DNA of 33,220 bases from an uncultured Candidatus Saccharibacteria bacterium (GCA_964513095.1 CAZELH010000001.1:1-33220); one strand, 5' to 3'. Numbered from the stretch's first letter, positions 9,006 through 31,614 are shown. Numbers and translations: made by a program. The notes: a model not told the origin generated them from the letters alone.

Positions 9006-9821
9006 TTAAGGGGTTGTGGTCGTAGTCGTCGTAGCGGTTGTCGTTGTGTTTACTGGAGGAAGAGTATTGACCCCTGGGATGCCGGCAAGTGTGGTAGCGG
9101 CGGTTCGAACAGCTTCGCGGGCAGCTTTTACCTTTTCTTGCAAAGCTTCTAAGTCAGCTTTGAGTGCATCGCGAACTTTTGAAATATCTCCTTGGAGTTT
9201 TGTTTCGGTTGAGACGGTGACCGGATAATCCTTACCAGCTTGGGCGGTAATCGCGGTACGTGCAGTAGTAATCGCGGTTTGCGCGGCAGTAATAGCAGTA
9301 CGAACTGATGCAACATCCTTACCAGCGGTTGCGGCACGATCTGTGCGAGACTGCACATTCGTTAATACTTTCTCAATTTGATCAACAGCTTTCGTAAAGA
9401 ATTCGGTTCGATTTTTGTTAATCTCCTCAAAACGCTTATCAACGCGCTCTACGATATTTTTCTTTGCTTCATCTTTGATAGCTTTCAATTTTTTCTTTAA
9501 TTCTTCACGGCGTTTTTCGATAGCGTCTTTCAATTTTGCTCGACGTTCTTCGACATTCTTTTCGAACTCAGCGCGACGATCTTCTCGCTCTTGCTTGTTC
9601 GCTTCCATCATTTCTTTACGATCTTCCCGATTTTCTTTTCGCACCTCCTGACGATCCTTCATGTTCTGTTGAATGGTCTCTTTCTTGAGTTCAACAGTGG
9701 CTTTGATGGTATCGCGACGTTCCTCAATACGAGGACGTATTGGGGTAGTTTCGGCATGTGAGTATGGGGCAACGAGGCTTGCCAAAGCAGTAGCTGCCAC
9801 TATGTATGTATATGTACGCAT
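9006..9821 (-). CDS. hypothetical secreted coiled-coil protein with poly-Thr C-terminus
   Basis: Signal-peptide-like MRTYTYIVAATALASLVAPYSHAE. Long E/K/R heptad-like region. TAIT repeats. C-terminal TTTTATTTTTTTP. Confidence 0.7.
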   Translation of the reverse strand: MRTYTYIVAATALASLVAPYSHAETTPIRPRIEERRDTIKATVELKKETIQQNMKDRQEVRKENREDRKEMMEANKQEREDRRAEFEKNVEERRAKLKDAIEKRREELKKKLKAIKDEAKKNIVERVDKRFEEINKNRTEFFTKAVDQIEKVLTNVQSRTDRAATAGKDVASVRTAITAAQTAITTARTAITAQAGKDYPVTVSTETKLQGDISKVRDALKADLEALQEKVKAAREAVRTAATTLAGIPGVNTLPPVNTTTTATTTTTTTP

Positions 9822-11542: not shown

Positions 11543-11780
11543 GTAGCCAATAGCCACTAGGGTTTAGAAATTTTTTCCGTCATCCCGAGTGCATACGAGG
11601 GATCTCACAACTGTTCGCGTAGCAATATTATTGGATAAGTACTAATACTTCATTATTCGTTACTCATGCTTCTTAATTTGTCATTTCCGCGCCGCGCCCT
11701 TCCGAAGCGTTACGCGAAGGAGGGAAGGTGGGAATCTATGCCGATTTCTTTGTTCACGATTTGCGTTCTAGGTTTTAGGA
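11543..11780. repeat. intergenic repeat mosaic C
   Basis: gtagccaatagccactagggtttag (11543-11567), gtcatcccgagtgcatacgagggatc (11579-11604), gtcatttccgcgccgcgcccttccgaagcgttacgcgaaggagggaaggtgggaatc (11680-11736), and ttctaggttttagg (11766-11779, the reverse complement of 9861-9874). Confidence 0.7.
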
Positions 11781-11790
11781 TTCCATTAGT

Positions 11791-11819
11791 TTGACAAATC
11801 AGTATAAATATGCTATTAT
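11791..11819 (+). promoter_or_regulatory. sigma70-like promoter of paralog 1
   Basis: TTGACA (11791-11796), 17 nt, TATTAT (11814-11819). Confidence 0.55.
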
Positions 11820-11837
11820 ATAGAAAGCAATACATGA

Positions 11838-11873
11838 GGGACGATTCCCCTTGTAAACGCTGGTAAAACCAGC
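11838..11873 (+). promoter_or_regulatory. conserved 5'-leader element, copy 1
   Basis: gggacgattccccttgtaaa (11838-11857) is identical to 12622-12641. One nt later comes the hairpin GCTGG taaaa CCAGC (11859-11873). Confidence 0.5.
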
Positions 11874-11901
11874 AACTTCCCAATTGCTATAGGAGGAAAG
11901 T

Positions 11902-12483
11902 ATGTTTGATACAATCGTCGATCAATTGCTCAATTCCCTGCCACATGTTTTTTGTGGCCTTCTCATCATGATGGCAATCGCCGCGATGATTATGACGACC
12001 TTAAACCGTCGTCAAAAACAGGCTGCGAAGCGCCGGCTCGACGATGAGGAAAAAGCAAAAAAAGAACGGCGAGATTTGCAAGTGAAATTGGGCAATGAAG
12101 CCCTAGATCGGTTTCGAGAAGCCGCTCGGAAAAATACCCACTGCAACATCCTTCCAAGCGGAAGGATCGCAGAAAACATCGGAACGATTTCTATTGTTCC
12201 AATGCCAACCAACGGAACAGCAGGGTACTCAATTCTTCCGTTTATGAGAGATGATAAGAGCATAAATGGAAGAATTGAGATTTTTCAATTGGATATTAAT
12301 TTGGACAAAAAAGGTGAAGAGATTCACGTTTTTGGGTGCCCATATGGCCCAGAACATAAATATCCTATTGATTCATATACAGAGGTTATTTCTAACCTCT
12401 GTGAAGAATTGCGATATTTTTCGCCATTTCCCGAAACCGAAGAACTGTTTCGGGCGGGAAAATTGAAAAAAATCGCCGGCTAG
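11902..12483 (+). CDS. hypothetical single-pass membrane protein, paralog 1 (193 aa)
   Basis: SD AGGAGG (11891-11896). N-terminal TM, a charged coiled segment and a globular C-domain. It aligns with the 12691 product (YSILPFM/YAILAFM, IFQLDINL/IFRLEINL, NLCEELRYF/DLCETVRTY). Confidence 0.75.
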   Translation: MFDTIVDQLLNSLPHVFCGLLIMMAIAAMIMTTLNRRQKQAAKRRLDDEEKAKKERRDLQVKLGNEALDRFREAARKNTHCNILPSGRIAENIGTISIVPMPTNGTAGYSILPFMRDDKSINGRIEIFQLDINLDKKGEEIHVFGCPYGPEHKYPIDSYTEVISNLCEELRYFSPFPETEELFRAGKLKKIAG

Positions 12484-12525
12484 GTAACGCTGGCCGAGGG
12501 GTTAAAATCCTCCCACCCCAAACAT

Positions 12526-12555
12526 GGTCGCCCCTAACAAGGCGACCGTTTTTTT
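12526..12555 (+). terminator. rho-independent terminator
   Basis: GGTCGCC cctaacaa GGCGACC g TTTTTTT. Confidence 0.85.
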
Positions 12556-12575
12556 ATACAAACACCGCATAATTG

Positions 12576-12604
12576 TTGACTGTCATGAATTTTTGTGATA
12601 TTAA
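12576..12604 (+). promoter_or_regulatory. sigma70-like promoter of paralog 2
   Basis: TTGACT (12576-12581), 17 nt, TATTAA (12599-12604). Confidence 0.5.
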
Positions 12605-12621
12605 GTAAACAGCACTACAAC

Positions 12622-12659
12622 GGGACGATTCCCCTTGTAAAAGATCGGAATATCCGATC
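12622..12659 (+). promoter_or_regulatory. conserved 5'-leader element, copy 2
   Basis: gggacgattccccttgtaaa (12622-12641). One nt later comes the hairpin GATCGGA ata TCCGATC (12643-12659), followed by attttaaatt. Confidence 0.5.
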
Positions 12660-12690
12660 ATTTTAAATTCAATACATAGGAGAAAAAAGT

Positions 12691-13263
12691 ATGCCTTTTA
12701 GTGTCTCAATGTTTGCATGGATAGTGCTGATTGCGCTAATAGCAGCCTTCATCACCAATTTCGTGGTTCGCGGTATGCGACAAAATATAGAAATTCAAAA
12801 TCAGCGCGAAAAAAGAGAGCTAGAAAAACAGCAACAACGGTTGCAGAATGATTTCGGTGATAATGCAATTGCCGAATTGAGAAAGGCCGCTTCTGATAAT
12901 AAAGTCGCCCGCGTATTATCATCTGGAGTGCGGTCAACCGAAGTGCTTGGACCGTATATTTCTTCAGAAATTGATCACGAAGAAAAAAATAGCCCGTACG
13001 CAATCCTTGCGTTTATGACCGATACGAAGACGCCAGACAGACAGCACCTGATATTCCGATTGGAGATCAATCTAAAAGGAAATATCGATGAGCAAGTGCG
13101 CGTTTTGTATGGACCATATTACGACAATAGAGAAGAATTTTTTGGCGTAGGCGTTTTCTACAACGTGCTAAACGATTTATGCGAAACAGTACGCACCTAC
13201 CGCCATTTTCGCAGGAGTGGTCGAATTGCTCGGAGCGCAAAAAAGCCCGAGATAGTTGGCTAA
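12691..13263 (+). CDS. hypothetical single-pass membrane protein, paralog 2 (190 aa)
   Basis: SD AGGAG (12678-12682). Same architecture as the 11902 product. Confidence 0.75.
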   Translation: MPFSVSMFAWIVLIALIAAFITNFVVRGMRQNIEIQNQREKRELEKQQQRLQNDFGDNAIAELRKAASDNKVARVLSSGVRSTEVLGPYISSEIDHEEKNSPYAILAFMTDTKTPDRQHLIFRLEINLKGNIDEQVRVLYGPYYDNREEFFGVGVFYNVLNDLCETVRTYRHFRRSGRIARSAKKPEIVG

Positions 13264-13284
13264 TCCTATTCTTGAAATTACCAC

Positions 13285-13313
13285 AGTCGCCTCTCGCAAA
13301 GGCGACTTTTTTT
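13285..13313 (+). terminator. rho-independent terminator
   Basis: AGTCGCC tctcgcaaa GGCGACT followed by T7. The T-tract overlaps the stop codon of the convergent gene at 13312. Confidence 0.85.
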
Positions 13314-13833
13314 ACAATATTCGGCTATCGTATGCCCAGTGTAATAAGGCTTGACGCTGACGTGGTCGACACGACACATCTCCCGCGCGACAATGCTTTT
13401 TTAGCTGTCCGATATGTCGGGCTATCGCTCGCCAACGCGCAATTTGGCGTGCGTCTTCATGAGGAATTCGTCGACCCATATAGTATCGACAGTACCACTG
13501 AAACCATCCGCGCGGATCTTCGCCGTAAATCCACCCTTTCTTTTTCCAATACGACAGTGGCGCGCTCGCGTTTATTTTAAAATAATTGCATTGCGGATCA
13601 TGAAAATCCGAATTCAATTTTGCACGGACAAACCATGATTTTGGAAATTCTTTTTTGCAATCAGTCATATACTTCCCGCCAAAAACACCCAACGCGAGCA
13701 TTTCTTTGGGTGTTAAATCGGGGGTAAAAAGGGGGTCAAACGATTTCCCTGCCGGAGCCACCAAATCGTATCGATAATTTTTTTGCATTCGGTCATTCAC
13801 AGTCACCGTTTTATAGAACCCTCGTTTTTTCAT
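13312..13833 (-). CDS. conserved hypothetical protein, Trp/Arg/Cys-rich (174 aa)
   Basis: Start preferred at ATG 13833 (MKKRGFYK), 8 nt after the upstream stop. Distinctive motif DPRGWFQWYCRYYMGRRIPHEDARQIARW. I cannot name a family. Confidence 0.7.
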   Translation of the reverse strand: MKKRGFYKTVTVNDRMQKNYRYDLVAPAGKSFDPLFTPDLTPKEMLALGVFGGKYMTDCKKEFPKSWFVRAKLNSDFHDPQCNYFKINASAPLSYWKKKGWIYGEDPRGWFQWYCRYYMGRRIPHEDARQIARWRAIARHIGQLKKHCRAGDVSCRPRQRQALLHWAYDSRIL

Positions 13834-21488: not shown

Positions 21489-22838
21489 ATGAAAAAGAAA
21501 TATGCAATAGCCGGAATGCACTGCAAATCGTGCGAAATACTTCTTGAAAAAAGTATCTCACAAATCTCCGGTGTCAAAAAAGTTGAAGTGAGCCAAAAAT
21601 TAGGAATTGCGGAAGTTGAATTTTCGCATGGGATCGTAGCGGAGGAGCTCATCGCCCAAGCAGTCAATGACGCGGGGTACACGCTTGGTCATGCAAAAAA
21701 GCTTCCATGGGTATCGCGAAATCCAGAAGAATGGATGGAGCTATTGCTTGGCACCACCACACTCTTGTTTTTCTGGATGGTGGGAAATACGGTGGGTATC
21801 TTCGATACGTTTGGAACAAATATTTCCGCCACACCAACCTACCCCATTATATTTATCATCGGCCTTACCGCCGGCGTCTCAACCTGCATGGCAGTAGTGG
21901 GAGGGCTGGTCGCCGGTTTTTCTGCCTCATACGCGCAAAAACATCAGTACGCTACTCGCTGGGAGCGATTTAAACCACACCTCTTCTTTAACATCGGGAG
22001 ATTACTTTCGTATGCGATACTAGGCGGTGTTATTGGGTCTTTAGGATCAGTTGTTACCATATCAACTGGATTTACGGGTGTTCTAGTTGCCGTATCTGGC
22101 CTCGTTATGGTGGTAATGGGAATGAAACTCACGGACATTTCTCCAAAACTTTCCAATACCAACATAACCCTTCCAAAAAAAATAAGTCAGATGCTCGGTA
22201 TTCACAAAAATGATGGAGAGTATTCACATGCACAAGCATTTATTGGAGGAATACTCACTTTTTTCTTGCCCTGTGGGTTCACGCAGGCGGTGCAAGTCTA
22301 TGCGATAACGACAGGAAGTTTTGCAACAGGCGCAATCGTCATGTTTCTGTTTGCGCTCGGCACGATGCCGGGGTTGGTAGGTATTGGCGCGCTCACCACG
22401 CTCTTGCAAGGCAAAGGAGCGAAAATCATCTTTCGATTTATCGGTCTGATCGTCTTGATACTAGGAATAGTGAATCTTTCCAACGGAATAAGCGCCAGTG
22501 GAATACAAATTCCTTCCCCTTTTGATATGTTTGGAAATAAAGCAACAACAAACGAAGCAATCATTGAAAATGGCGAACAGGTCGTGAAAATGATTCAATC
22601 AGCTGGCGGATATAGCCCCAATAAATTCATTGTGAAAAAAGGAATTCCGGTGCGGTGGGTTATTGATTCACAAAACGCCTACACCTGCGCTGCCTCACTT
22701 CGAATGCCACAGTACAACATCGCGCAATTCTTGAAAGAAGGAGAAAACGTCATCACGTTCACGCCAACGCAAGCAGGAGTCGTGCGATTTATGTGCAGTA
22801 TGGGTATGTATTCGGGAACATTCACCGTAGTAGAATAA
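21489..22838 (+). CDS. HMA domain / TauE-DsbD-like permease / C-terminal cupredoxin-like fusion protein
   Basis: N-terminal GMHCKSCE heavy-metal-associated motif, about 6 TM helices with FFLPCGFTQ, and a C-terminal beta-rich domain ending [16 protein letters not shown]. Confidence 0.8.
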
Positions 22839-22854
22839 AAACATCATAAAAAAT

Positions 22855-25023
22855 ATGAAAAAAATTTCATTTGGCATTGGTGGCATGCACTGTGCCTCAT
22901 GTGTCGTTCTCAATGAAAAAGCGATACGATCGGTGGCAGGAGTAACAGATGTGTCGGTAAATTTCGGACTTCGAAAAGCACAAGTTTCATTCGATGAAAC
23001 AAAAACGACGGAAAAAGATATTCACGACGCAGTTATTGCTGGTGGATACACGGTTGAAAGTAGTTCCAATAGCACGATGCGTCATGAGCACGCGCAAAAA
23101 GAGATTGTGCGGGTAAAAAAAACCGCCATCTGGTCTGTTGGCTTAGCAATCGTAACAGCAATACTTGCAATGGCAAACATACGGTTTGGTATTCCTGTAT
23201 TGAACCGCGATCTTTCGGCGCTAACGCAAATGGTAGTAAGCGCCATCGTCATTTTCGGATTTGGACGAGAGTTTCATGTTGGAATGTTCAAAAAAGCACG
23301 CAGATTTCAAGCCGATATGGACACATTAGTGTCTCTTGGCACTATCGCCGCGTTCGCCTTTAGTGTCTATGGACTCATCATGCAAAGCCCCGATTCTTAT
23401 TTTGAAACAGGAGCAGTTATTGCGGGATTGATTTTGTTGGGGCGGTATTTTGAAGCAAAAAGTCGCGGATCAGCTGGAGAAGCGGTTGAGAAATTGATGC
23501 AACTGGGTGCAAAATCAGCACACGTAGTACGAAATGGACAAGAAACAGAAATTCCAATCGCCGATGTTACTCTTGGCGATATTCTTCGCATTCGTCCGGG
23601 AGAAAAAATTCCGGTAGATGGCAGTGTGCTTTCGGGAAATTCGAGCGTCGATGAGTCGATGCTCACCGGCGAAAGTATGCCAGTCACCAAAAAAATTGGC
23701 GACAAGGTGTTTGGCGCAACATTGAACAGTAGTGGAAGTTTCGAAATGAGAGCTGAAAAAGTAGGAAGCGACACCGTCCTCGCGCAGATTGTAAAAATGG
23801 TGGAAGAGGCGCAAACCCAAAAAGCGCCAATTGAACGGTTGGCCGACACACTATCATCGATATTCGTGCCGATTGTATTGGGAATTTCAGTAGTAACGGT
23901 TGCGGGGTGGTTCTGGGCAACAAAAGACATCACGCAAGCCATTACGACGGCAGTAGCCGTGTTAGTGGTCGCTTGCCCGTGTGCGTTGGGGTTGGCAACA
24001 CCAACGGCGGTGATGGTGGGCACCGGCGAAGGTGCGCGCCGTGGCGTGTTGATTAAAAACGGATCATCGCTCGAGAAAGGGAAGAAAATAGACACCGTAA
24101 TATTCGATAAAACCGGCACGCTTACCCAAGGAAAACCGAAAGTGACCGATGTCATTTCGGTGGATGGTGTCGCGGAAAATGAATTACTTGTCATCGGAGC
24201 GAGTATTGAAAGCTACTCCGAGCATCCCCTCGCCCACGCAATTGTCGAATATGCAAAAGAAAAAAACAGCAAGATAGTCGATGTAAAAAATTTCACGGCA
24301 ATAACAGGCAAAGGTGTGCGTGGTGAAGTAAATGGTGCGCAGATTGTAATGAGCAGTGTTCGATTTGCGCACGAAGAGCATGTCGATATAAGCAAAGTAC
24401 AATCAAATATTACGCAATTAGAACTCGAAGCAAAAACAGTTATTGTTGTAATAAAAAACGGTGAAGTTATCGGCGCACTTGCTATTGCCGACGCCATAAA
24501 AGAAGACGCGCCACTCGCCGTAGCTACCCTAAAAAAGATGGGTATGAAAGTCGCGATGATTACAGGAGACAACGAAGCCACTGCTCGTGCTATTGGGAAA
24601 ATGGTTGGCATCGACGACGTCATCGCTCACGTACTGCCGCAAGACAAAGCAAAAGCAGTAAAAAGCTTGCAAATGAAGGGTGCGAAAATTGCCTTTGTGG
24701 GTGACGGCATCAACGATGCCCCCGCGCTCGTACAATCTGACTTAGGAATTGCGATGGGCACCGGTACCGATATTGCCATCGAATCAGGTGATATCGTCTT
24801 GGTTTCAGGGAGTCCGGTAAAAGTGGGCGTGGCAATTCAGTTGGCGCAAGTAACCTTTCGAACGATTAAACAAAACCTCTTTTGGGCATTCTTCTACAAC
24901 GTCGCCGCCATTCCCCTTGCCGCATTCGGATTACTCAACCCCATGATCGCCGCCACCGCAATGGCCGCATCGAGCGTGAGCGTGGTCGCCAACAGTCTCC
25001 GTATCAAACGCAAAAAAATGTAA
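22855..25023 (+). CDS. copA: copper-translocating P1B-type ATPase
   Basis: GMHCASCV (HMA), [18 protein letters not shown] (CPC), [15 protein letters not shown]. Confidence 0.95.
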
Positions 25024-25587: not shown

Positions 25588-28503
25588 TCAAAATAATTTA
25601 CCCGCAGCCGTCGCCTCATTCACTCTCGCAAGCTCACAAATTTCTTCAATTGAAGCATTATTGTCTTTCAAGCTGTAAAAGTGGTTCTCACCAAGTAGAA
25701 TATACGACCATTCTCGCTCTATTCTGTCCTTTGCATCAAGAGAGTTGATGCGTTTTATCCAATGAAGAGTGGAAAGCTGTTTTTGTTTAACATTTTGGTC
25801 ATTTAAATCTTTATCGGATTTTGTTTCAATGAGGTATATTTTCTTTGCCGTTTTTACGATAAAGTCAGGAAAATAGAGGGACAGCAATCCGTCAGTACGA
25901 ATATATGAAATAGTTGCAAACGAATGAGAATACTCATTAACTTTAATCAAACTCTCAACACCAGAATCCGTATCTGCATACAGCATAAATTTTTTTTCAA
26001 ATTCACCTCTATTTGATGGGTATGCTAGGCGTTCATAAATTGTTTTAACAATCGCAAGAGAAAAATTTTCTCTCATTCTAAGCTCCGTAACTTCTGAATA
26101 ATATCGCTTTTCAATTTTTGCTTCTGTTGGTTTTATCGCTTGTTGCATATCGATAACTGCTTTGCCAATTTCTTTCACAATATGGTCCGTAATTAAACCA
26201 TTTTTTAGTAAAAGAATTTTCCAATTATTATTTACAAAAGGATCAAAGCTTTGTCTAAAGAGACGATTACGAATATAGGTATCAATAGTACTAACAATAG
26301 CGACGTTGTTAATCTGCATAGCTGGAAATACTTTATTTTTTCTCTGGCTTATTCTGGCAATCCTATTAACCACCACACCAACAATTTTTTGAAGATACTC
26401 ATTATAGCTTTGTGATTTGAAAAGAGCCGCATCAACTACATATTCTCCGAATCGAGTTTTTACTGTCATTTCTTCCGAAATAAACCTCTCGCCATCTTTT
26501 GTAAAAAACTTTTTCAAATCCTCAAGTAGGTATAGATTAAATGCCTCAAGTTTATTTACATCAATTTCAATCTCCGTCAGCTCATCATCAGCATCTCTTA
26601 TAATAATGGGCCAAAATAAGTCGTAATCTTTGTAATTTTTTTTAAGTCCAACTTTAATAATATCTCCAAGAACATCACGCTCACCTGTCGGATCTTTTTC
26701 AATCTCGCCAAGCAAACCTTCTTTCAGAAGTTCGTCGTAAAATTGGATAAACGCAGGGTGCTCAATAATAGTAAGTAAATCAAGATAATTATTAGGCTCA
26801 CGCTTTTCCGAGAGTAGTTTTCTTCTGTTATCAGCTTTTACTTCTTCAAATTCTGGTTCGCGCCACATAAGTCGAAGCCCTCGCCCAATCGTCTGTTCGA
26901 GTAAAATTGGCGCCGAAGAAGAACGAAGCGGAACAATCACGCAAATATTATTTACATCAAATCCTTCTCGTAACATAAGCACCGACACAATAACTTTTGG
27001 ATGCGCATGTTTGTCTACATTAAAAAGTCGTTGTTTGATTTCAAACCATTCCTCCTCTGGCACTTCTCCCTTTCGGTTTGAATCAATACGCATAACATCT
27101 TCCGAATTCAACCCTTCGCTTTTCAAGAATTCTTCAATGAATGGCGTGACAGAGGTATCTTCGCTCATCACCAGCATTTTCGGATGTTTATTCGATATCC
27201 CGCTTTTATCCTCAGTAAATTCAGTGAAATGCTTTTCAAGAATCCGCAACTTATTAAGTCCGGCTCGGAGCATCATTTTTTGACCGTCGGAAAGTCCAAC
27301 TACTTCTCCATTCTCCCGAATAGCATTGTATTCAAGAGGTAGATCAACGAGTTCTTTCCTCTTATCGATTGCAATAGTTTTTACCAATCCAGACCGAATT
27401 GCCGTTTTTAAATCAAAATCAACAATAATATGAGGAAAATAATGTTTAATTCTATTTTGCCCACTACCAGTTACATCATATGGCGTAGCCGAGAAATCAA
27501 TTTGTATAAACTTCGACGCTTTGTTTTTAGCGATAACATTCAAACTTTTTTGCCATTCGACTTCTTTTACTTCTCCGTATGCTTTATTCTCGTGAATATG
27601 GTGTGCTTCGTCATTCATTACCATCAAATCAGGCAAACTAGCAAGATATTCAATTTCGCGACCGCTTAAATATTGAGAGTCCAAAGAATCAAGCGCGTTT
27701 CCTCCAGATGTCCCCGGTCGCACAGGAAAGACGTCTTTCAACACAGCACTAGGATCATCAAGCGCGGAGGCTTCCTCTTCGTTTTCGTCCTCACTCATAA
27801 ATAAATGCCAATTCGCTATGGCAATGAGACCATCTCCAGTGACCTTAGTCCCGATTTCTTGTTTTCTGGCTACTGCGTTTTGTACAAAGCCAAATATGTC
27901 TTCACGATAACTAGGTGGAACAAAAATATCGCGAAATTGGTACACATCAGAAGTTTCGAAATTTCTTTCGCCTTCCATATTTTCCTTGCCTAAATACGCA
28001 TCAAGCAATCTTTCATAAACAATAAGTCCAGGCGCGACAAGGAGAAAGTTTTTTGAATATTTGCCACTTCGAGTTTCTTCATATTTTGCATTGAGATATT
28101 GCCAGATAAGAAGTGCGTGCATAACCCATGTTTTACCCGTTCCTGTCGCCATCTTTATCGCATATTTTGGAATATCATATTTCACTTTCCGAAATTCAGT
28201 CATGTCTATTTCAGACAAAAGTTCAAATTCAATATTGTCATAAATATCTTTAACGGCTTTTACCCCCATTACTTCATGCAAATAAATCGTGTTTAAAATC
28301 GCCTGACGCTGTCCTTCATGAAAATTGGCATATCTTGTTGCTCTATGCGGTTCGGTGAACCAAAAAGTGAGCAAATCACGAGTTACTGGAGTAACTTTTG
28401 CCATCATTTCTCCATTTGCCCACGACTCATTAACCCTGCTCGTAAGCTTGCTGGCAAGGCGAAGTGGTATATCTCTTGTTCCTAGTTTGATCGGGGTTGG
28501 CAT
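25588..28503 (-). CDS. res: Type III restriction enzyme Res subunit (SF2 helicase plus C-terminal PD-(D/E)xK)
   Basis: ATGTGKT (motif I), MNDEAHHI (DEAH), FSATP, QTIGRGLR (motif VI), and the C-terminal nuclease-like PDF...LIETK. The start lies 2 nt after the mod stop. Confidence 0.9.
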   Translation of the reverse strand: MPTPIKLGTRDIPLRLASKLTSRVNESWANGEMMAKVTPVTRDLLTFWFTEPHRATRYANFHEGQRQAILNTIYLHEVMGVKAVKDIYDNIEFELLSEIDMTEFRKVKYDIPKYAIKMATGTGKTWVMHALLIWQYLNAKYEETRSGKYSKNFLLVAPGLIVYERLLDAYLGKENMEGERNFETSDVYQFRDIFVPPSYREDIFGFVQNAVARKQEIGTKVTGDGLIAIANWHLFMSEDENEEEASALDDPSAVLKDVFPVRPGTSGGNALDSLDSQYLSGREIEYLASLPDLMVMNDEAHHIHENKAYGEVKEVEWQKSLNVIAKNKASKFIQIDFSATPYDVTGSGQNRIKHYFPHIIVDFDLKTAIRSGLVKTIAIDKRKELVDLPLEYNAIRENGEVVGLSDGQKMMLRAGLNKLRILEKHFTEFTEDKSGISNKHPKMLVMSEDTSVTPFIEEFLKSEGLNSEDVMRIDSNRKGEVPEEEWFEIKQRLFNVDKHAHPKVIVSVLMLREGFDVNNICVIVPLRSSSAPILLEQTIGRGLRLMWREPEFEEVKADNRRKLLSEKREPNNYLDLLTIIEHPAFIQFYDELLKEGLLGEIEKDPTGERDVLGDIIKVGLKKNYKDYDLFWPIIIRDADDELTEIEIDVNKLEAFNLYLLEDLKKFFTKDGERFISEEMTVKTRFGEYVVDAALFKSQSYNEYLQKIVGVVVNRIARISQRKNKVFPAMQINNVAIVSTIDTYIRNRLFRQSFDPFVNNNWKILLLKNGLITDHIVKEIGKAVIDMQQAIKPTEAKIEKRYYSEVTELRMRENFSLAIVKTIYERLAYPSNRGEFEKKFMLYADTDSGVESLIKVNEYSHSFATISYIRTDGLLSLYFPDFIVKTAKKIYLIETKSDKDLNDQNVKQKQLSTLHWIKRINSLDAKDRIEREWSYILLGENHFYSLKDNNASIEEICELARVNEATAAGKLF

Positions 28504-28505
28504 AA

Positions 28506-30467
28506 TTAAATTTCTTTTACCACAACACTCTCAAATCCAAAGACATCTACGGCCCGGACACAAATTTTTCTTTTTCCTTCAACTTTTGGTACTATAAATT
28601 CTGCCTTATACAAAACCCTCATTGGGTCACCATCTTTTTCTGTATTACCTCTATAATCCTGCCACACACCTTTAAAAGTTTCACCGTCATAATCAGGATC
28701 AATACTCCAATATTCTATTAGGGCAAGTGAATCCTCGGCAATAAGCTTCGATAATTTTTCTTTGTCTTTTTCATCGAGCGGCAAATTATCCGCCGAAATT
28801 AACGCATACCAGTCTAAGATAACCCTTATGCGGTCACCTTCTTTCCCAGCGCTTAATCCTTCAGCAGACTTTAATACAAGGTATTGGGGTGACGAGAACC
28901 TGATTTTACCGCTATCTATTAGTTTCTTATAGCTTGCTTTTGTTTTTAACTTATCTATCAAGTCAGGGGGTATTACCGCTAAATCCAGGTCCTCATCATC
29001 AAGTGACCCTTTTGCGTCAAGTATGTCATAAGTAAAATTCCACCCCAAAACAACAACTTTTTTCCAACCACCCATAAAAGTGTTCCTGAGTTCTTGTGCG
29101 CGTTTTAAAGTAGACAATCCAGTCATCTTATTTGGCGAATCAACCAAAACAAGAGTTTTGGTTTCTTTTATGTATCCTAAATTGCGCTGATGTTGTTCCA
29201 CATCGGCAAAAGGGATCGCGCCATAAAGCTGTAGCACCACCTGCGACAAATCACCCATTCTTCTAAACAATTTCGAGCTTGTGACAGCCTCTTTTTGGTA
29301 ATCTCCAATAGACTGATAAAGAAAAGGCTTTGCTTCTTGGTCAATAAGCCTCTTACGAGTTACTAAACTTGCCGGCTTGCCAAGGTCAGACATGATCCAT
29401 TTTCGTCCAAGTTTTTCTGCAACAGCCCCTGTTGTACCAGAACCCATAAAAAAATCAGCGACAATGTCACCCTCGTTTGAAGATGCTTTTATGATCCGCT
29501 CCAAAAGTGCCTCTGGTTTTTGGGTGTCATAGTCAACTTTTTCTGGAGATTTTGGGTCAACAACTTTTATATACCAGACATCTCCAATAACAGAGCCTTT
29601 AAACTCAATGATTACATCATCCCCTTCTGGTTTTCTTCCCTTATCTTTTATAAAACTATCAATATATGTTTGAAAACGCTTGTCGTGATAGGGTGCATTT
29701 CTTGCATAAATTTTATTGGAATCAACGTAATCGTACCACCGATTAAAATTAACTCCGGCGTTTATATCTTTTTCGTAGTCTCTATTAAATGTGCGTACTT
29801 CAGATTTGCCATATATGTAGATACTATTATGTCTACGTGGAAAATACCGATCAGTTTCAGACCAAGCTCCTTGATACTCCCAAGTAATTTCATTGACAAA
29901 ATTGTTCTTTCCAAAAACTTCATCTAGTAATATCTTTACATAATGCCCAACGTGCCAATCAATATGCACATAAATTGACCCCTTATCGGAAAGAAGCTCG
30001 TGCATAAGGGCAAGGCGAGGATAGAGCATTTTCAAATATGAAACAGTTCCATCTTTCCATGTGTCAGCATAAGCAAATTGTTCAATTACAGTCGGCTTTT
30101 GTTCTAAGTCTGCACCCGGGAGTGTTATTTTTGTCCGATAATCTGCTTTTGAATCAAATGGGGGGTCAATATAGATTAAATCTATTTTTCCACGCATTGA
30201 TTGGAGGCCACTTGAAGGGTCGCCGGAGAGGAGTGCTTGCATCGCCAAAAGATTATCGCCATAAATGATTCGATTCATCAATCCTTTCTCGTTTACTTCC
30301 GGAATTTGGCCCTTGAAAAGTCCGGCGGTATCTTTTGCTGGAAGAACTAGTTCGTTTGTTTGAAGTCCAAGCTTATTCGCTCCAGAAAGTCGCTCAAGAA
30401 TTTCCTCAACTTCTTTTCTACCCTCCGCTACTATTTTTGGCAATTCCTCAATAAGTGATTTTTTCAT
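28506..30467 (-). CDS. mod: Type III DNA methyltransferase Mod subunit (beta-class N6A/N4C)
   Basis: Motif IV LIYIDPPF precedes motif I DFFMGSGTTGAVA (beta permutation). 653 aa, adjacent to res. Confidence 0.9.
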   Translation of the reverse strand: MKKSLIEELPKIVAEGRKEVEEILERLSGANKLGLQTNELVLPAKDTAGLFKGQIPEVNEKGLMNRIIYGDNLLAMQALLSGDPSSGLQSMRGKIDLIYIDPPFDSKADYRTKITLPGADLEQKPTVIEQFAYADTWKDGTVSYLKMLYPRLALMHELLSDKGSIYVHIDWHVGHYVKILLDEVFGKNNFVNEITWEYQGAWSETDRYFPRRHNSIYIYGKSEVRTFNRDYEKDINAGVNFNRWYDYVDSNKIYARNAPYHDKRFQTYIDSFIKDKGRKPEGDDVIIEFKGSVIGDVWYIKVVDPKSPEKVDYDTQKPEALLERIIKASSNEGDIVADFFMGSGTTGAVAEKLGRKWIMSDLGKPASLVTRKRLIDQEAKPFLYQSIGDYQKEAVTSSKLFRRMGDLSQVVLQLYGAIPFADVEQHQRNLGYIKETKTLVLVDSPNKMTGLSTLKRAQELRNTFMGGWKKVVVLGWNFTYDILDAKGSLDDEDLDLAVIPPDLIDKLKTKASYKKLIDSGKIRFSSPQYLVLKSAEGLSAGKEGDRIRVILDWYALISADNLPLDEKDKEKLSKLIAEDSLALIEYWSIDPDYDGETFKGVWQDYRGNTEKDGDPMRVLYKAEFIVPKVEGKRKICVRAVDVFGFESVVVKEI

Positions 30468-30470
30468 AAA

Positions 30471-31397
30471 TTATTTTTTCTCCAGCTTGAAGCTAATTTT
30501 GTATGTATAAAAATCGATATTTTGTGCAACAGACAGGGCACGATGAATTCTTGTGTCATCTTCAAAAGCGATTATCACACCTTTAACTTTTTGATTGTCT
30601 TCAGCCAATTCTTCTTGGACATAACCCATATATCGCTGGATTTGACCGACAACAACATCGCTCACGCGACCTTTCTTGAGCTCAACAACCAAAAGCTCTT
30701 TTTTATCTTTACTAATAGCCAAAATATCTATCGGTCCGGTATCACTTGGGTATTGCTGTCCTACCTTCTCCCCTTCTTCCTCGTAGATATCGTAATGTTT
30801 ACCAAGTTCGGTGTGGTGCCAGTTTTGTACCAAAAAATCTTCCAAATGTTTCTCCAAAGCAAAAATGCTCGGGTCTTCAATCGTTTCGTCGGTAGAGATA
30901 ATAGATACAGGGCGACTTCCTGAAATAAAACTCTCTATTTCATTTCCATATTTTGAAATATTGCTAACGGTTCCAATGCTTCCTGTTGAATTGCGAAGCG
31001 ACTCACTCATTTGATCGCGGGAAATCGTGTTTGGGAACCAACGAACAGCTCTGCGGTGCGGAAGGTTATCGTTCTTGTGATATTCATATTCACCCGTGAC
31101 TTCGCCGATATAGTATTCGCCCTTCCCATTGGGACAAAGAACAATATCGCCAATTTGCACGCCTTTTACTATCGTCCAAAGCATTCCGCAAGCAAGCCCG
31201 GCAGAAATTTTTGTTTTTTCAGGATTTTGTTTGAGAAAAAGTGGAATGAATTCTTTGTTGAAGTCTCGCCAGTTATCAGATAGGTGGCTCGCAAGGTTTG
31301 TATCCTTTATAAATCCTCCAGCTATAAAATTGCCTTTGTATGCCTCCTCGGCAAAAGCACTTTTTCGACCAAGCATTATGCGATAATAATTTTTCAT
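30471..31397 (-). CDS. NucS/DUF91-like PD-(D/E)xK nuclease with an uncharacterised N-terminal domain (308 aa)
   Basis: The C-terminal GPIDILAISKDKKELLVVELKKGRVSDVVVGQIQRYMGYV matches the D...E-x-K...Q..RY pattern of the NucS C-domain. Start at ATG 31397 (MKNYYRIMLG); the track ORF to 31547 reads through the tRNA gene. The stop lies 3 nt before the mod start. Confidence 0.75.
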   Translation of the reverse strand: MKNYYRIMLGRKSAFAEEAYKGNFIAGGFIKDTNLASHLSDNWRDFNKEFIPLFLKQNPEKTKISAGLACGMLWTIVKGVQIGDIVLCPNGKGEYYIGEVTGEYEYHKNDNLPHRRAVRWFPNTISRDQMSESLRNSTGSIGTVSNISKYGNEIESFISGSRPVSIISTDETIEDPSIFALEKHLEDFLVQNWHHTELGKHYDIYEEEGEKVGQQYPSDTGPIDILAISKDKKELLVVELKKGRVSDVVVGQIQRYMGYVQEELAEDNQKVKGVIIAFEDDTRIHRALSVAQNIDFYTYKISFKLEKK

Positions 31398-31405
31398 ACT
31401 CACTG

Positions 31406-31476
31406 CTGCGGGACTTGGACTCGAACCAAGATAGCCGCCTTCAAAGGGCGGAGTCCTACCATTAGACGATCCCGCA
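31406..31476 (-). tRNA. tRNA-Gln (anticodon UUG)
   Basis: Hand-folded cloverleaf: TGCGGGA TC GTC TAATGGTAG GAC T CCGCC CTTTGAA GGCGG CTAT CTTGG TTCGAGT CCAAG TCCCGCA G. It has a 7-bp acceptor with U1-A72, a 3-bp D stem and GTTCGAGT in the T-loop, as in bacterial tRNA-Gln. CCA is not encoded. Confidence 0.9.
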
Positions 31477-31488
31477 AAATACACACCT

Positions 31489-31516
31489 ATTATGCCACGT
31501 ACACCAAAAAAATCAA
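31489..31516 (-). promoter_or_regulatory. extended -10 promoter for tRNA-Gln (and possibly the downstream operon)
   Basis: On the - strand: TTGATT (31511-31516), 16 nt, TGgCATAAT (-10 at 31489-31494), 12 nt before the tRNA 5' end. Confidence 0.45.
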
Positions 31517-31614
31517 TTTCCCCGCATTGATTTTGGCGGGTAGTCATGCCATGCTAAAACCAGTTGCACCCCCCCTCTTTTTAATAATTCCATATCACCC
31601 ATCTGGAGGTACCC

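Follow-up and report, generated by a model that had tools for sequence, protein, structure and literature searches.

Two paralogous genes and their leaders

The window analysed here is a 33-kb stretch of genome (one strand) of an uncultured Candidatus Saccharibacteria bacterium, obtained from activated-sludge metagenomes; all counts within the window are limited to that span. It carries two paralogous protein genes whose messenger RNA (mRNA) leaders contain an identical 20-mer, GGGACGATTCCCCTTGTAAA. Together with the TACA(A) upstream of it, this 20-mer core forms a hairpin, P1, which did not feature in the earlier note on this DNA. P1 is followed in each leader by a second hairpin, P2, whose position and shape are kept between the two copies while the sequences are unrelated. 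The features of the two units are listed below (nt, nucleotides; aa, amino acids; CDS, coding sequence; SD, Shine-Dalgarno sequence).

11791-11819, + strand: predicted promoter of paralog 1, TTGACA-17-TATTAT, with TG upstream of the -10 box (11 of 12 consensus matches in the promoter scan)
11826-11830, + strand: predicted 5' single-stranded tail of copy 1, AGCAA, placed by promoter geometry
11831-11855, + strand: P1 copy 1, UACA-uga-GGGA-CGAU-UCCC-c-UUGUA, from RNA folds
11838-11857, + strand: 20-mer copy 1, spanning the P1 inner stem, loop and 3' strand and 2 nt of the linker
11859-11873, + strand: P2 copy 1, GCUGG(U)-aaa-(A)CCAGC, from the fold, with no U run behind it
11891-11896, + strand: SD of paralog 1, AGGAGG, read from the sequence
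11902-12483, + strand: paralog 1 CDS, 193 aa, with an N-terminal membrane helix, a charged helix and an alpha/beta domain with a PYGP motif
12524-12556, + strand: intrinsic terminator of paralog 1, stem GTCGCC/GGCGAC followed by T7
12576-12604, + strand: predicted promoter of paralog 2, TTGACT-17-TATTAA, read from the sequence and aligned gaplessly to copy 1
12611-12615, + strand: predicted 5' tail of copy 2, AGCAC (AGCAA in the sister strain described below)
12616-12639, + strand: P1 copy 2, UACAA-c-GGGA-CGAU-UCCC-c-UUGUA, from RNA folds
12622-12641, + strand: 20-mer copy 2, from the exact-match scan
12643-12659, + strand: P2 copy 2, GAUCGGA-aua-UCCGAUC, from the fold, followed by the terminator-like AUUUUAAAUU
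12678-12682, + strand: SD of paralog 2, AGGAG, read from the sequence
12691-13263, + strand: paralog 2 CDS, 190 aa
13285-13314, + strand: intrinsic terminator of paralog 2, stem GTCGCC/GGCGAC followed by T7

The two paralogs are separate monocistronic units, since each has its own promoter and a strong intrinsic terminator. Judged by their hexamers, both promoters are sigma-70-type; that of paralog 2 was missing from the listing of the promoter scan because its -10 hexamer ends in A. With transcription starts predicted from promoter geometry (+1 placed 7 nt past the -10 box), transcripts would begin at ~11826 and ~12611 with 5' untranslated regions (UTRs) of 76 and 80 nt, in line with the ~76-80 nt given in the earlier note. 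The upstream regions of the two genes align gaplessly from the -35 box through TACA, with a spacing of 6 nt in both copies between the -10 hexamer and AGCA, the part of the tail that is identical in both; this alignment bears out the wider match AGCA[A/C]TACA that had been described ahead of the core. P2 and the SD are 17-18 nt apart in the two leaders. Both terminators are built on one stem, GTCGCC/GGCGAC, with different loops.

An exact-match scan returned the 20-mer at the two places where it had first been noticed, both on the + strand and 784 bp apart. No third copy was found in the window even when 3 mismatches were allowed, shorter pieces of the 20-mer gave no convincing third copy there, and a match occurred in 0 of 100 shuffled sequences. 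Neither a third paralog nor a third copy of P1 was found in the window or in homologous loci. Besides the 20-mer, no words of 9 nt or more shared by the two units were seen among the matches listed; the listed 9-12-mers were windows of the 20-mer plus one artefact of overlapping query ranges. The two proteins are 30% identical, which agrees with the one-third estimated by eye before, and the codon alignment of the paralogs gave a nonsynonymous divergence (dN) of 0.8 and a saturated synonymous divergence (dS) of 1.3-2.3. Because dS is saturated and the proteins are 30% identical, the 20-of-20 match is not the residue of a recent duplication. The earlier note had held that low synonymous divergence would speak against its observation; the observation stands, since dS is not low. 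At the divergence of the paralogs the expected per-site identity is ~38%, and a neutral 20-of-20 match would then have a probability of ~1e-9 (both estimates); on these sequence comparisons the identity of the leaders cannot be neutral.

P1 starts ~6 nt from the predicted 5' end of the RNA and consists of an outer stem UACA(A)/UUGUA, a small internal loop, an inner stem GGGA/UCCC and the tetraloop CGAU. A linker of 3 nt (AAC or AAA) separates it from P2, which begins 1 nt past the 20-mer core and corresponds in the two leaders to the hairpins GCTGG-taaaa-CCAGC (11859-11873) and GATCGGA-ata-TCCGATC (12643-12659) recognised previously. Compared with shuffled sequences, the P1+P2 folds had z = -4.2 and -5.6 (0 of 200 shuffles equally stable), and both hairpins persisted in folds of the full leader including the SD and the start codon. 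The CCCCUU tract, for which partial complementarity to the SD had been proposed as an anti-SD element, is the 3' strand of P1 and was paired with GGGA in all minimum-energy and centroid folds. Neither SD pairs with P1 in these folds: that of copy 1 is paired to a nearby CUUCC (11876-11880), and that of copy 2 is left essentially unpaired. The anti-SD claim was therefore dropped, and an SD-sequestering element was rejected on the same grounds, the SD being unpaired with P1 or P2 and CCCCUU pairing with GGGA within P1.

The mechanism put forward in the earlier note was a transcription attenuator with P2 as the terminator and/or CCCCUU masking the SD. Its attenuator part is partly supported: P2 of copy 2 is a 7-bp stem followed by AUUUUAAAUU that passes a terminator-like scan, and P2 of copy 1 is followed by AACUUCCC without a U run; a G+C-rich hairpin with a direct U run is thus present in copy 2 and not in copy 1. 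An antiterminator pairing conserved in both copies was not found by inspection or in the minimum-energy or centroid folds; complementarity between AUUCC (P1) and GGAAU (P2), noticed by eye, is present in copy 2 only. The RNA data also bear on this mechanism. Contigs of 151 nt from two sludge metatranscriptomes lie on paralog 2 (12629-12779, 12897-13047 and 13031-13181), and none was found on paralog 1. One of them starts at 12629, inside P1, and continues across P2 and the U-rich stretch as far as the CDS; it fits a copy 2 leader that is co-transcribed with its CDS, with transcription passing P2, and speaks against attenuation. In favour of attenuation is a run of 3-5 U directly behind P2 in four of the seven homologous leaders described below (L122, L124, L131 and L132). 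Weighing both sides, we consider the attenuator plausible for copy 2 only, and the proposed mechanism very unlikely as an account of the leaders.

Comparison with Rfam, a check named in the earlier note, gave no family matching the leader. Rfam 15 returned only tRNA-Gln for the whole window at the gathering threshold, and between 11600 and 13400 at E <= 10 there were only sub-threshold chance matches, the best in the leader being freshwater-2, whose 21.4 bits fall short of the 49.9 cut-off. A conserved 5' UTR structure ahead of a membrane-anchored protein of unassigned function might call to mind a small-molecule riboswitch or an RNA thermometer. Besides the lack of an Rfam match, however, a hairpin of 9-10 bp such as P1, interrupted by an internal loop of 1-3 nt and capped by a tetraloop, seems too simple to provide a ligand pocket, no multi-stem junction is present, and the SD lies outside both hairpins, unlike in ROSE or fourU thermometers; we regard both as extremely improbable.

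Three further candidates were rejected. A P1-loop pseudoknot with AAUCGUC (11913-11919) is available to copy 1 only and is uncompensated in the sister strain. A leader peptide is not common to the two copies: an ATG at 11834 in copy 1 opens a 10-codon open reading frame (ORF), and the corresponding frame in copy 2 has no start and has a stop at 12606-12608. GGGACGATTCCCC resembles the tRNA T-arm sequence GGGTTCGATTCCC, but its loop has 4 nt versus the 7 nt of a T-loop (TTCRANN), and neither ARAGORN nor Rfam called a tRNA at the leader.

Leader variation in a sister strain

Several of the metagenome runs hold a second haplotype, that of a sister strain, whose sequences were reconstructed from difference tables rather than read as contigs. 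Both sister leaders are linked on one 1202-nt contig, 787 nt apart. In copy 1 the sister haplotype has four changed positions in the promoter (11787, 11800, 11810 and 11816), a single change in P1 (11845 T>C, in the tetraloop), a change in the linker that is not shared by copy 2 (11857 A>C), two changes that together replace the closing G-C pair of P2 with A-U (11859 G>A and 11873 C>T, compensatory), and seven changes between 11884 and 11900. P1 and the tail (30 nt) thus hold one change, versus seven in the 28 nt before the start codon. In copy 2 only three differences were observed in 146 nt of leader, all within 15 nt: 12615 C>A, by which the tail takes the AGCAA form of copy 1; 12617 A>G, which replaces a P1 A-U pair with G·U (G·T at the DNA level); and 12629 T>C in the loop, at the same position of the 20-mer as 11845. 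Folds of the variant sequences retained both P1 and P2. Because the change in P2 is compensatory (G-C to A-U) and that in the P1 stem leads from A-U to G·U, the sister-strain changes point to RNA pairing.

Within each strain the two P1 loops therefore agree, reading CGAU in one strain and CGAC in the other. Three changes placed at random in 146 nt would include one that matches a copy 1 change in position and base with an estimated chance of ~0.01-0.02, and the matched T>C is a case of concerted evolution. Its source can be micro gene conversion, or both sites can be tracking one partner.

Other differences between the haplotypes lie outside the hairpins. The sister haplotype has a 7-nt insertion, TCTAGAC, at 11766, upstream of the paralog 1 promoter, and 11816 T>G turns the paralog 1 -10 box from TATTAT to TAGTAT. 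Within 11700-13320 the paralog 1 region differs by >10% between the sludge haplotypes and the paralog 2 region by ~1.5%; 11951-12050 and 12126-12490 were unalignable at 85%. This contrast suggests mosaic recombination or diversifying selection on paralog 1.

The loop change bears on whether P1 and P2 are mere 5'-terminal stabilisers against 5'-end-dependent decay, with the identity of P1 kept by gene conversion between the tandem copies. Hairpins that begin ~6 nt from the predicted 5' end would suit this explanation, as would a P2 that needs structure only, the distance of only 784 bp between the copies, and the fact that two of the three sister-strain changes in copy 2 make or keep it equal to copy 1. 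A structural hairpin should nevertheless covary as P2 does, yet P1 is identical in 20 of 20 positions, including loop and linker, at saturated dS. A conversion tract over 12615-12629 would have put TACATGA over TGCAAC, which is not what is seen, and 11857 A>C is not common to both copies. RecA-dependent conversion is inefficient where only ~20-37 bp are identical and the flanks cannot be aligned, and such an island would first have had to arise by selection. We therefore think it unlikely that stabilisation and conversion account for P1, and the family data given below add to these objections.

A DNA operator was considered as well, in which the inverted repeat TACAA-c-GGGA/TCCC-c-TTGTA at ~+6 to +30 would bind a dimeric factor that represses both promoters as a roadblock. 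At the DNA level the two 10-nt arms of P1 copy 2 make a nearly symmetric inverted repeat around a 4-bp spacer, the element lies just downstream of the promoter in both copies, and a concerted change of the loop, which would be the spacer, could also follow a DNA-binding protein. Copy 1, however, is asymmetric, with a gap of 3 nt between TACA and GGGA versus 2 nt between TCCC and TGTA; the sister-strain change 12617 A>G keeps the RNA pair and breaks the palindrome; the adjacent P2 and its compensatory change would be left unexplained; and no regulator gene is adjacent. The family helix described next, with its strand-specific RNA signature, weighs against an operator too, and we consider it quite unlikely.

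Homologous leaders in the protein family

The paralogs matched no Pfam or NCBIfam family, word-indexed protein searches returned almost nothing beyond the query itself, and protein-pattern scans found no relatives in GTDB genomes or viral contigs. A profile hidden Markov model of both paralogs, run against 1.84 billion representatives, recovered 57 distant homologues. Members of the family have a membrane helix or a short MALFGLY-type N-terminus, a charged helix and a ~110-aa domain with the PYGP motif. The AlphaFold2 model was confident (predicted local distance difference test score, pLDDT, 94) and consists of a long N-terminal helix, comprising the membrane anchor and the charged part, and the small alpha/beta PYGP domain; a fold search of the PDB with this model gave no match better than E = 0.2.

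Contigs of eleven family members were examined. A leader layout like that of the window was observed in seven bacterial loci, one of which, L133, has an identical copy, L134. The leaders lie as follows.

L122, 44-128, + strand: homologous leader
L123, 36-119, + strand: homologous leader
L124, 497-579, + strand: homologous leader
L131, 4919-5003, + strand: homologous leader
L132, 4914-5003, + strand: homologous leader
L133, 94-176, + strand: homologous leader
L135, 537-624, + strand: homologous leader

The four other loci examined lack the motif, and one of them has an archaeal gene context. Archaeal surroundings of a family gene are seen at L127 (CDC48, GatD, deoxyhypusine synthase and RIO1). 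At L132 (4111-6416) the family gene and a 119-aa ORF, both on the opposite strand, lie between rpsJ (S10) and rplC (L3) and break the usual order of the S10 operon.

In the homologues a promoter of the type TTGAC-17-TATAAT is followed by a 6-nt tail with an invariant GGU, a P1, a P2 and the SD. Their P1 has the form AUGCGGA-GCCnnnnAAnG-UCUGCAU (GGAGCC type), with loop and stem top conserved. P2 abuts it and is free in sequence and length, and the SD follows 8-18 nt further on. RNAalifold recovers this P1. Of its alignment cells 94.5% pair, versus 24-48% when the partner is slid by 1-3 columns; 8 of 55 cells are G·U versus 3 non-pairs, which is the strand-specific signature that argues for RNA and against an operator; and in a hand-made structural alignment L135 changes both sides of four P1 pairs. 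The earlier note had also held that leaders of relatives without conservation or covariation would tell against it; the seven homologues carry a conserved P1 with G·U and compensatory pairs. The conservation of the family P1 loop across genomes is moreover beyond the reach of gene conversion and counts against stabilisers kept alike by that process. With saturated dS, the preservation of P1 in the sister strain and the equivalent conserved hairpin of the homologues, the proposal that selection acts on the leader itself is upheld.

The GGAGCC-type and window leaders share their gene family and the succession of promoter, short tail, conserved P1, variable P2 and SD. They differ in P1 itself: the GGAGCC-type P1 has a 7-8-bp stem and a conserved 9-10-nt loop (GCCnnnnAAnG) and abuts P2, whereas the window P1, with its tetraloop and internal loop, is separated from P2 by a linker of 3 nt. 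Among proteins with GGAGCC-type leaders pairwise identity is ~26-53%, in most cases ~30%, and paralog 1 shares ~30% with them; a neighbour-joining tree, weak and star-like, places paralog 1 with the GGAGCC-type members and paralog 2 elsewhere. A sequence-conserved P1 and a structure-only P2 at the mRNA 5' end are thus a trait of the gene family, because seven distant homologues have the same layout. The window holds a lineage-specific P1 that is common to both paralogs, though the proteins are not each other's closest relatives. The homologues' leaders had no Rfam 15 match at E <= 1, a search of the literature for a described motif found nothing relevant, and the GGAGCC-type leader is apparently undescribed. 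The GGAGCC-type pattern had one match in viral contigs, inside coding DNA, which was put down to chance.

Proposed recognition of P1 and its relation to known leaders

An RNA-level cis-regulatory or factor-binding element, one of the suggestions in the earlier note, is the best-supported reading of the leaders, given the conservation of P1 and the pair-preserving changes. Within it, P1 is quite possibly an mRNA recognition site for a shared trans-acting factor, with P2 acting only as structure. P1 would then be a sequence-specific docking site on the RNA for one factor, probably a protein, which would control both paralogs by acting on translation, on the stability of the mRNA, or on early elongation or termination at P2. 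What P2 contributes would be structure alone, whether as a partner for stacking, a site of pausing, a weak terminator or a 5' stabiliser. Sequence recognition is preferred to mere structure because P1, including its loop and linker, is identical between the copies while P2 covaries, because the family P1 loop is kept across genomes, where gene conversion cannot act, and because the loop changes in both copies together. RNA is preferred to DNA because one change keeps its pair as G·U, a pair in P2 is compensated, copy 1 is asymmetric and the family helix has an excess of G·U. A bolder version is possible but doubtful: a new class of 5'-leader RNA, belonging to an uncharacterised protein family of uncultivated bacteria, in which P1 docks an RNA-binding regulator of its own. 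This regulator might be the encoded protein itself, acting through its cytoplasmic domain (autoregulation); the ancestral GGAGCC hairpin would have been replaced, and the two copies would co-evolve with their partner. Such co-evolution is suggested by the T>C in both sister-strain loops.

Several observations weigh against recognition of P1 by a shared factor. The exact 20-mer had no match in GTDB representative genomes; its 18-nt core pattern had one match in viral contigs, inside coding DNA and rejected as chance; and a 16-mer had at least 120 matches in metagenome contigs, those listed all being chance, with unrelated flanks. A covariance model of the homologues' P1 (R1), which scores its own members at 40-54 bits, found nothing in the window at E <= 10, and the window P1 is thus not detectably related to the GGAGCC type. 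The evidence covers two sites and one sister haplotype only, and gene conversion can also produce the matched T>C. The RNA evidence consists of three 151-nt contigs of depth 2-3, on paralog 2 only, for which DNA carry-over is possible, and the transcription starts are predicted. No regulator gene adjoins the paralog pair. The analysis shows where the elements lie, the identity of the 20-mer, the fold, changes that preserve pairing, a loop change common to both copies, a layout repeated in homologues and a copy 2 contig that spans leader and CDS; that a factor exists, what it is and what its regulatory output would be are what we infer from these.

Known systems were compared from general knowledge and serve as analogies only. 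By such analogy the leaders most resemble boxes shared by paralogs, as in the csp cold box, and are also like promoter-proximal hairpins that occur in two copies (boxB, put). In the cspA family of E. coli (cspA/B/G/I) the cold box is a short 5'-end sequence common to diverged paralogs; it is capable of folding into a hairpin, and one factor presumably recognises it in all of them and controls them jointly. The window leaders likewise have a short, hairpin-forming element at their extreme 5' end that is common to diverged paralogs. Unlike it, they precede unrelated genes and have no sequence similarity to it; csp leaders are ~160 nt long and linked to cold shock, whereas the window UTRs have 76-80 nt and carry a fixed two-hairpin module ahead of a membrane-anchored protein. 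Lambda nutL/nutR boxB and HK022 putL/putR are promoter-proximal hairpin modules that occur twice per genome, with the sequence kept and different genes downstream, and act on nascent RNA. The window leaders share this arrangement, and their module would likewise act on nascent RNA, but no N-like protein, boxA, downstream terminator series or phage context was seen in the window, and Rfam gave no match for its leaders.

In the ribonucleic antiterminator (RAT) leaders of BglG/SacY, as in the window, a conserved hairpin of ~25-30 nt in paralogous units stands beside a second hairpin that may be a terminator. The RAT, however, overlaps the 5' arm of its terminator, whereas 3 nt of linker keep P1 and P2 apart; a U run is missing from copy 1, and no PRD-type regulator adjoins the pair. 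The stabiliser stem-loops of ompA, aprE and ermC similarly lie within a few nt of the mRNA 5' end, but what they require is structure, not sequence, whereas in the window 20 nt including loop and linker are identical at saturated divergence. A CsrA/RsmA site was rejected: such sites have GGA exposed in a hairpin loop and a second GGA at the SD, while the GGA of P1 lies in the stem (GGGA/UCCC) and its loop is CGAU. The element is most likely an undescribed 5'-UTR cis-regulatory hairpin of a known general kind.

Elsewhere in the window, a 271-aa protein (9006-9821, - strand) has a signal-peptide-like N-terminus, long charged apolipoprotein-like helical repeats and a C-terminal poly-Thr tail. A copper/heavy-metal module (21489-25023, + strand) encodes a 449-aa protein with an N-terminal CopZ-like domain and then a CopA-type P1B ATPase. 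A restriction-modification cluster lies at 25588-31547 (- strand), where G+C content falls to 35-40%. Its endonuclease (971 aa) is BPTD_3080-like and has type III/I Res-like helicase motifs, its adenine methyltransferase has 653 aa, and the C-terminus of its 358-aa ORF is NucS-like; the long call for this last ORF overlaps tRNA-Gln (31405-31476, - strand).

The case is an ordinary one if the hairpins do no more than stabilise the mRNA and owe their likeness to gene conversion. If P1 is a recognition site for a shared factor, two very old paralogs would be coupled through a compact regulatory RNA site not described before, and a natural allele pair, with the loop U in both copies or C in both, would already mark the nucleotide that is read. 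The window P1 and the different but equivalent GGAGCC-type hairpin would together point to tight control of an orphan protein family at the 5' end of its mRNAs, and the leader, with the confident protein model, offers a handle on both RNA and protein function in uncultured organisms.

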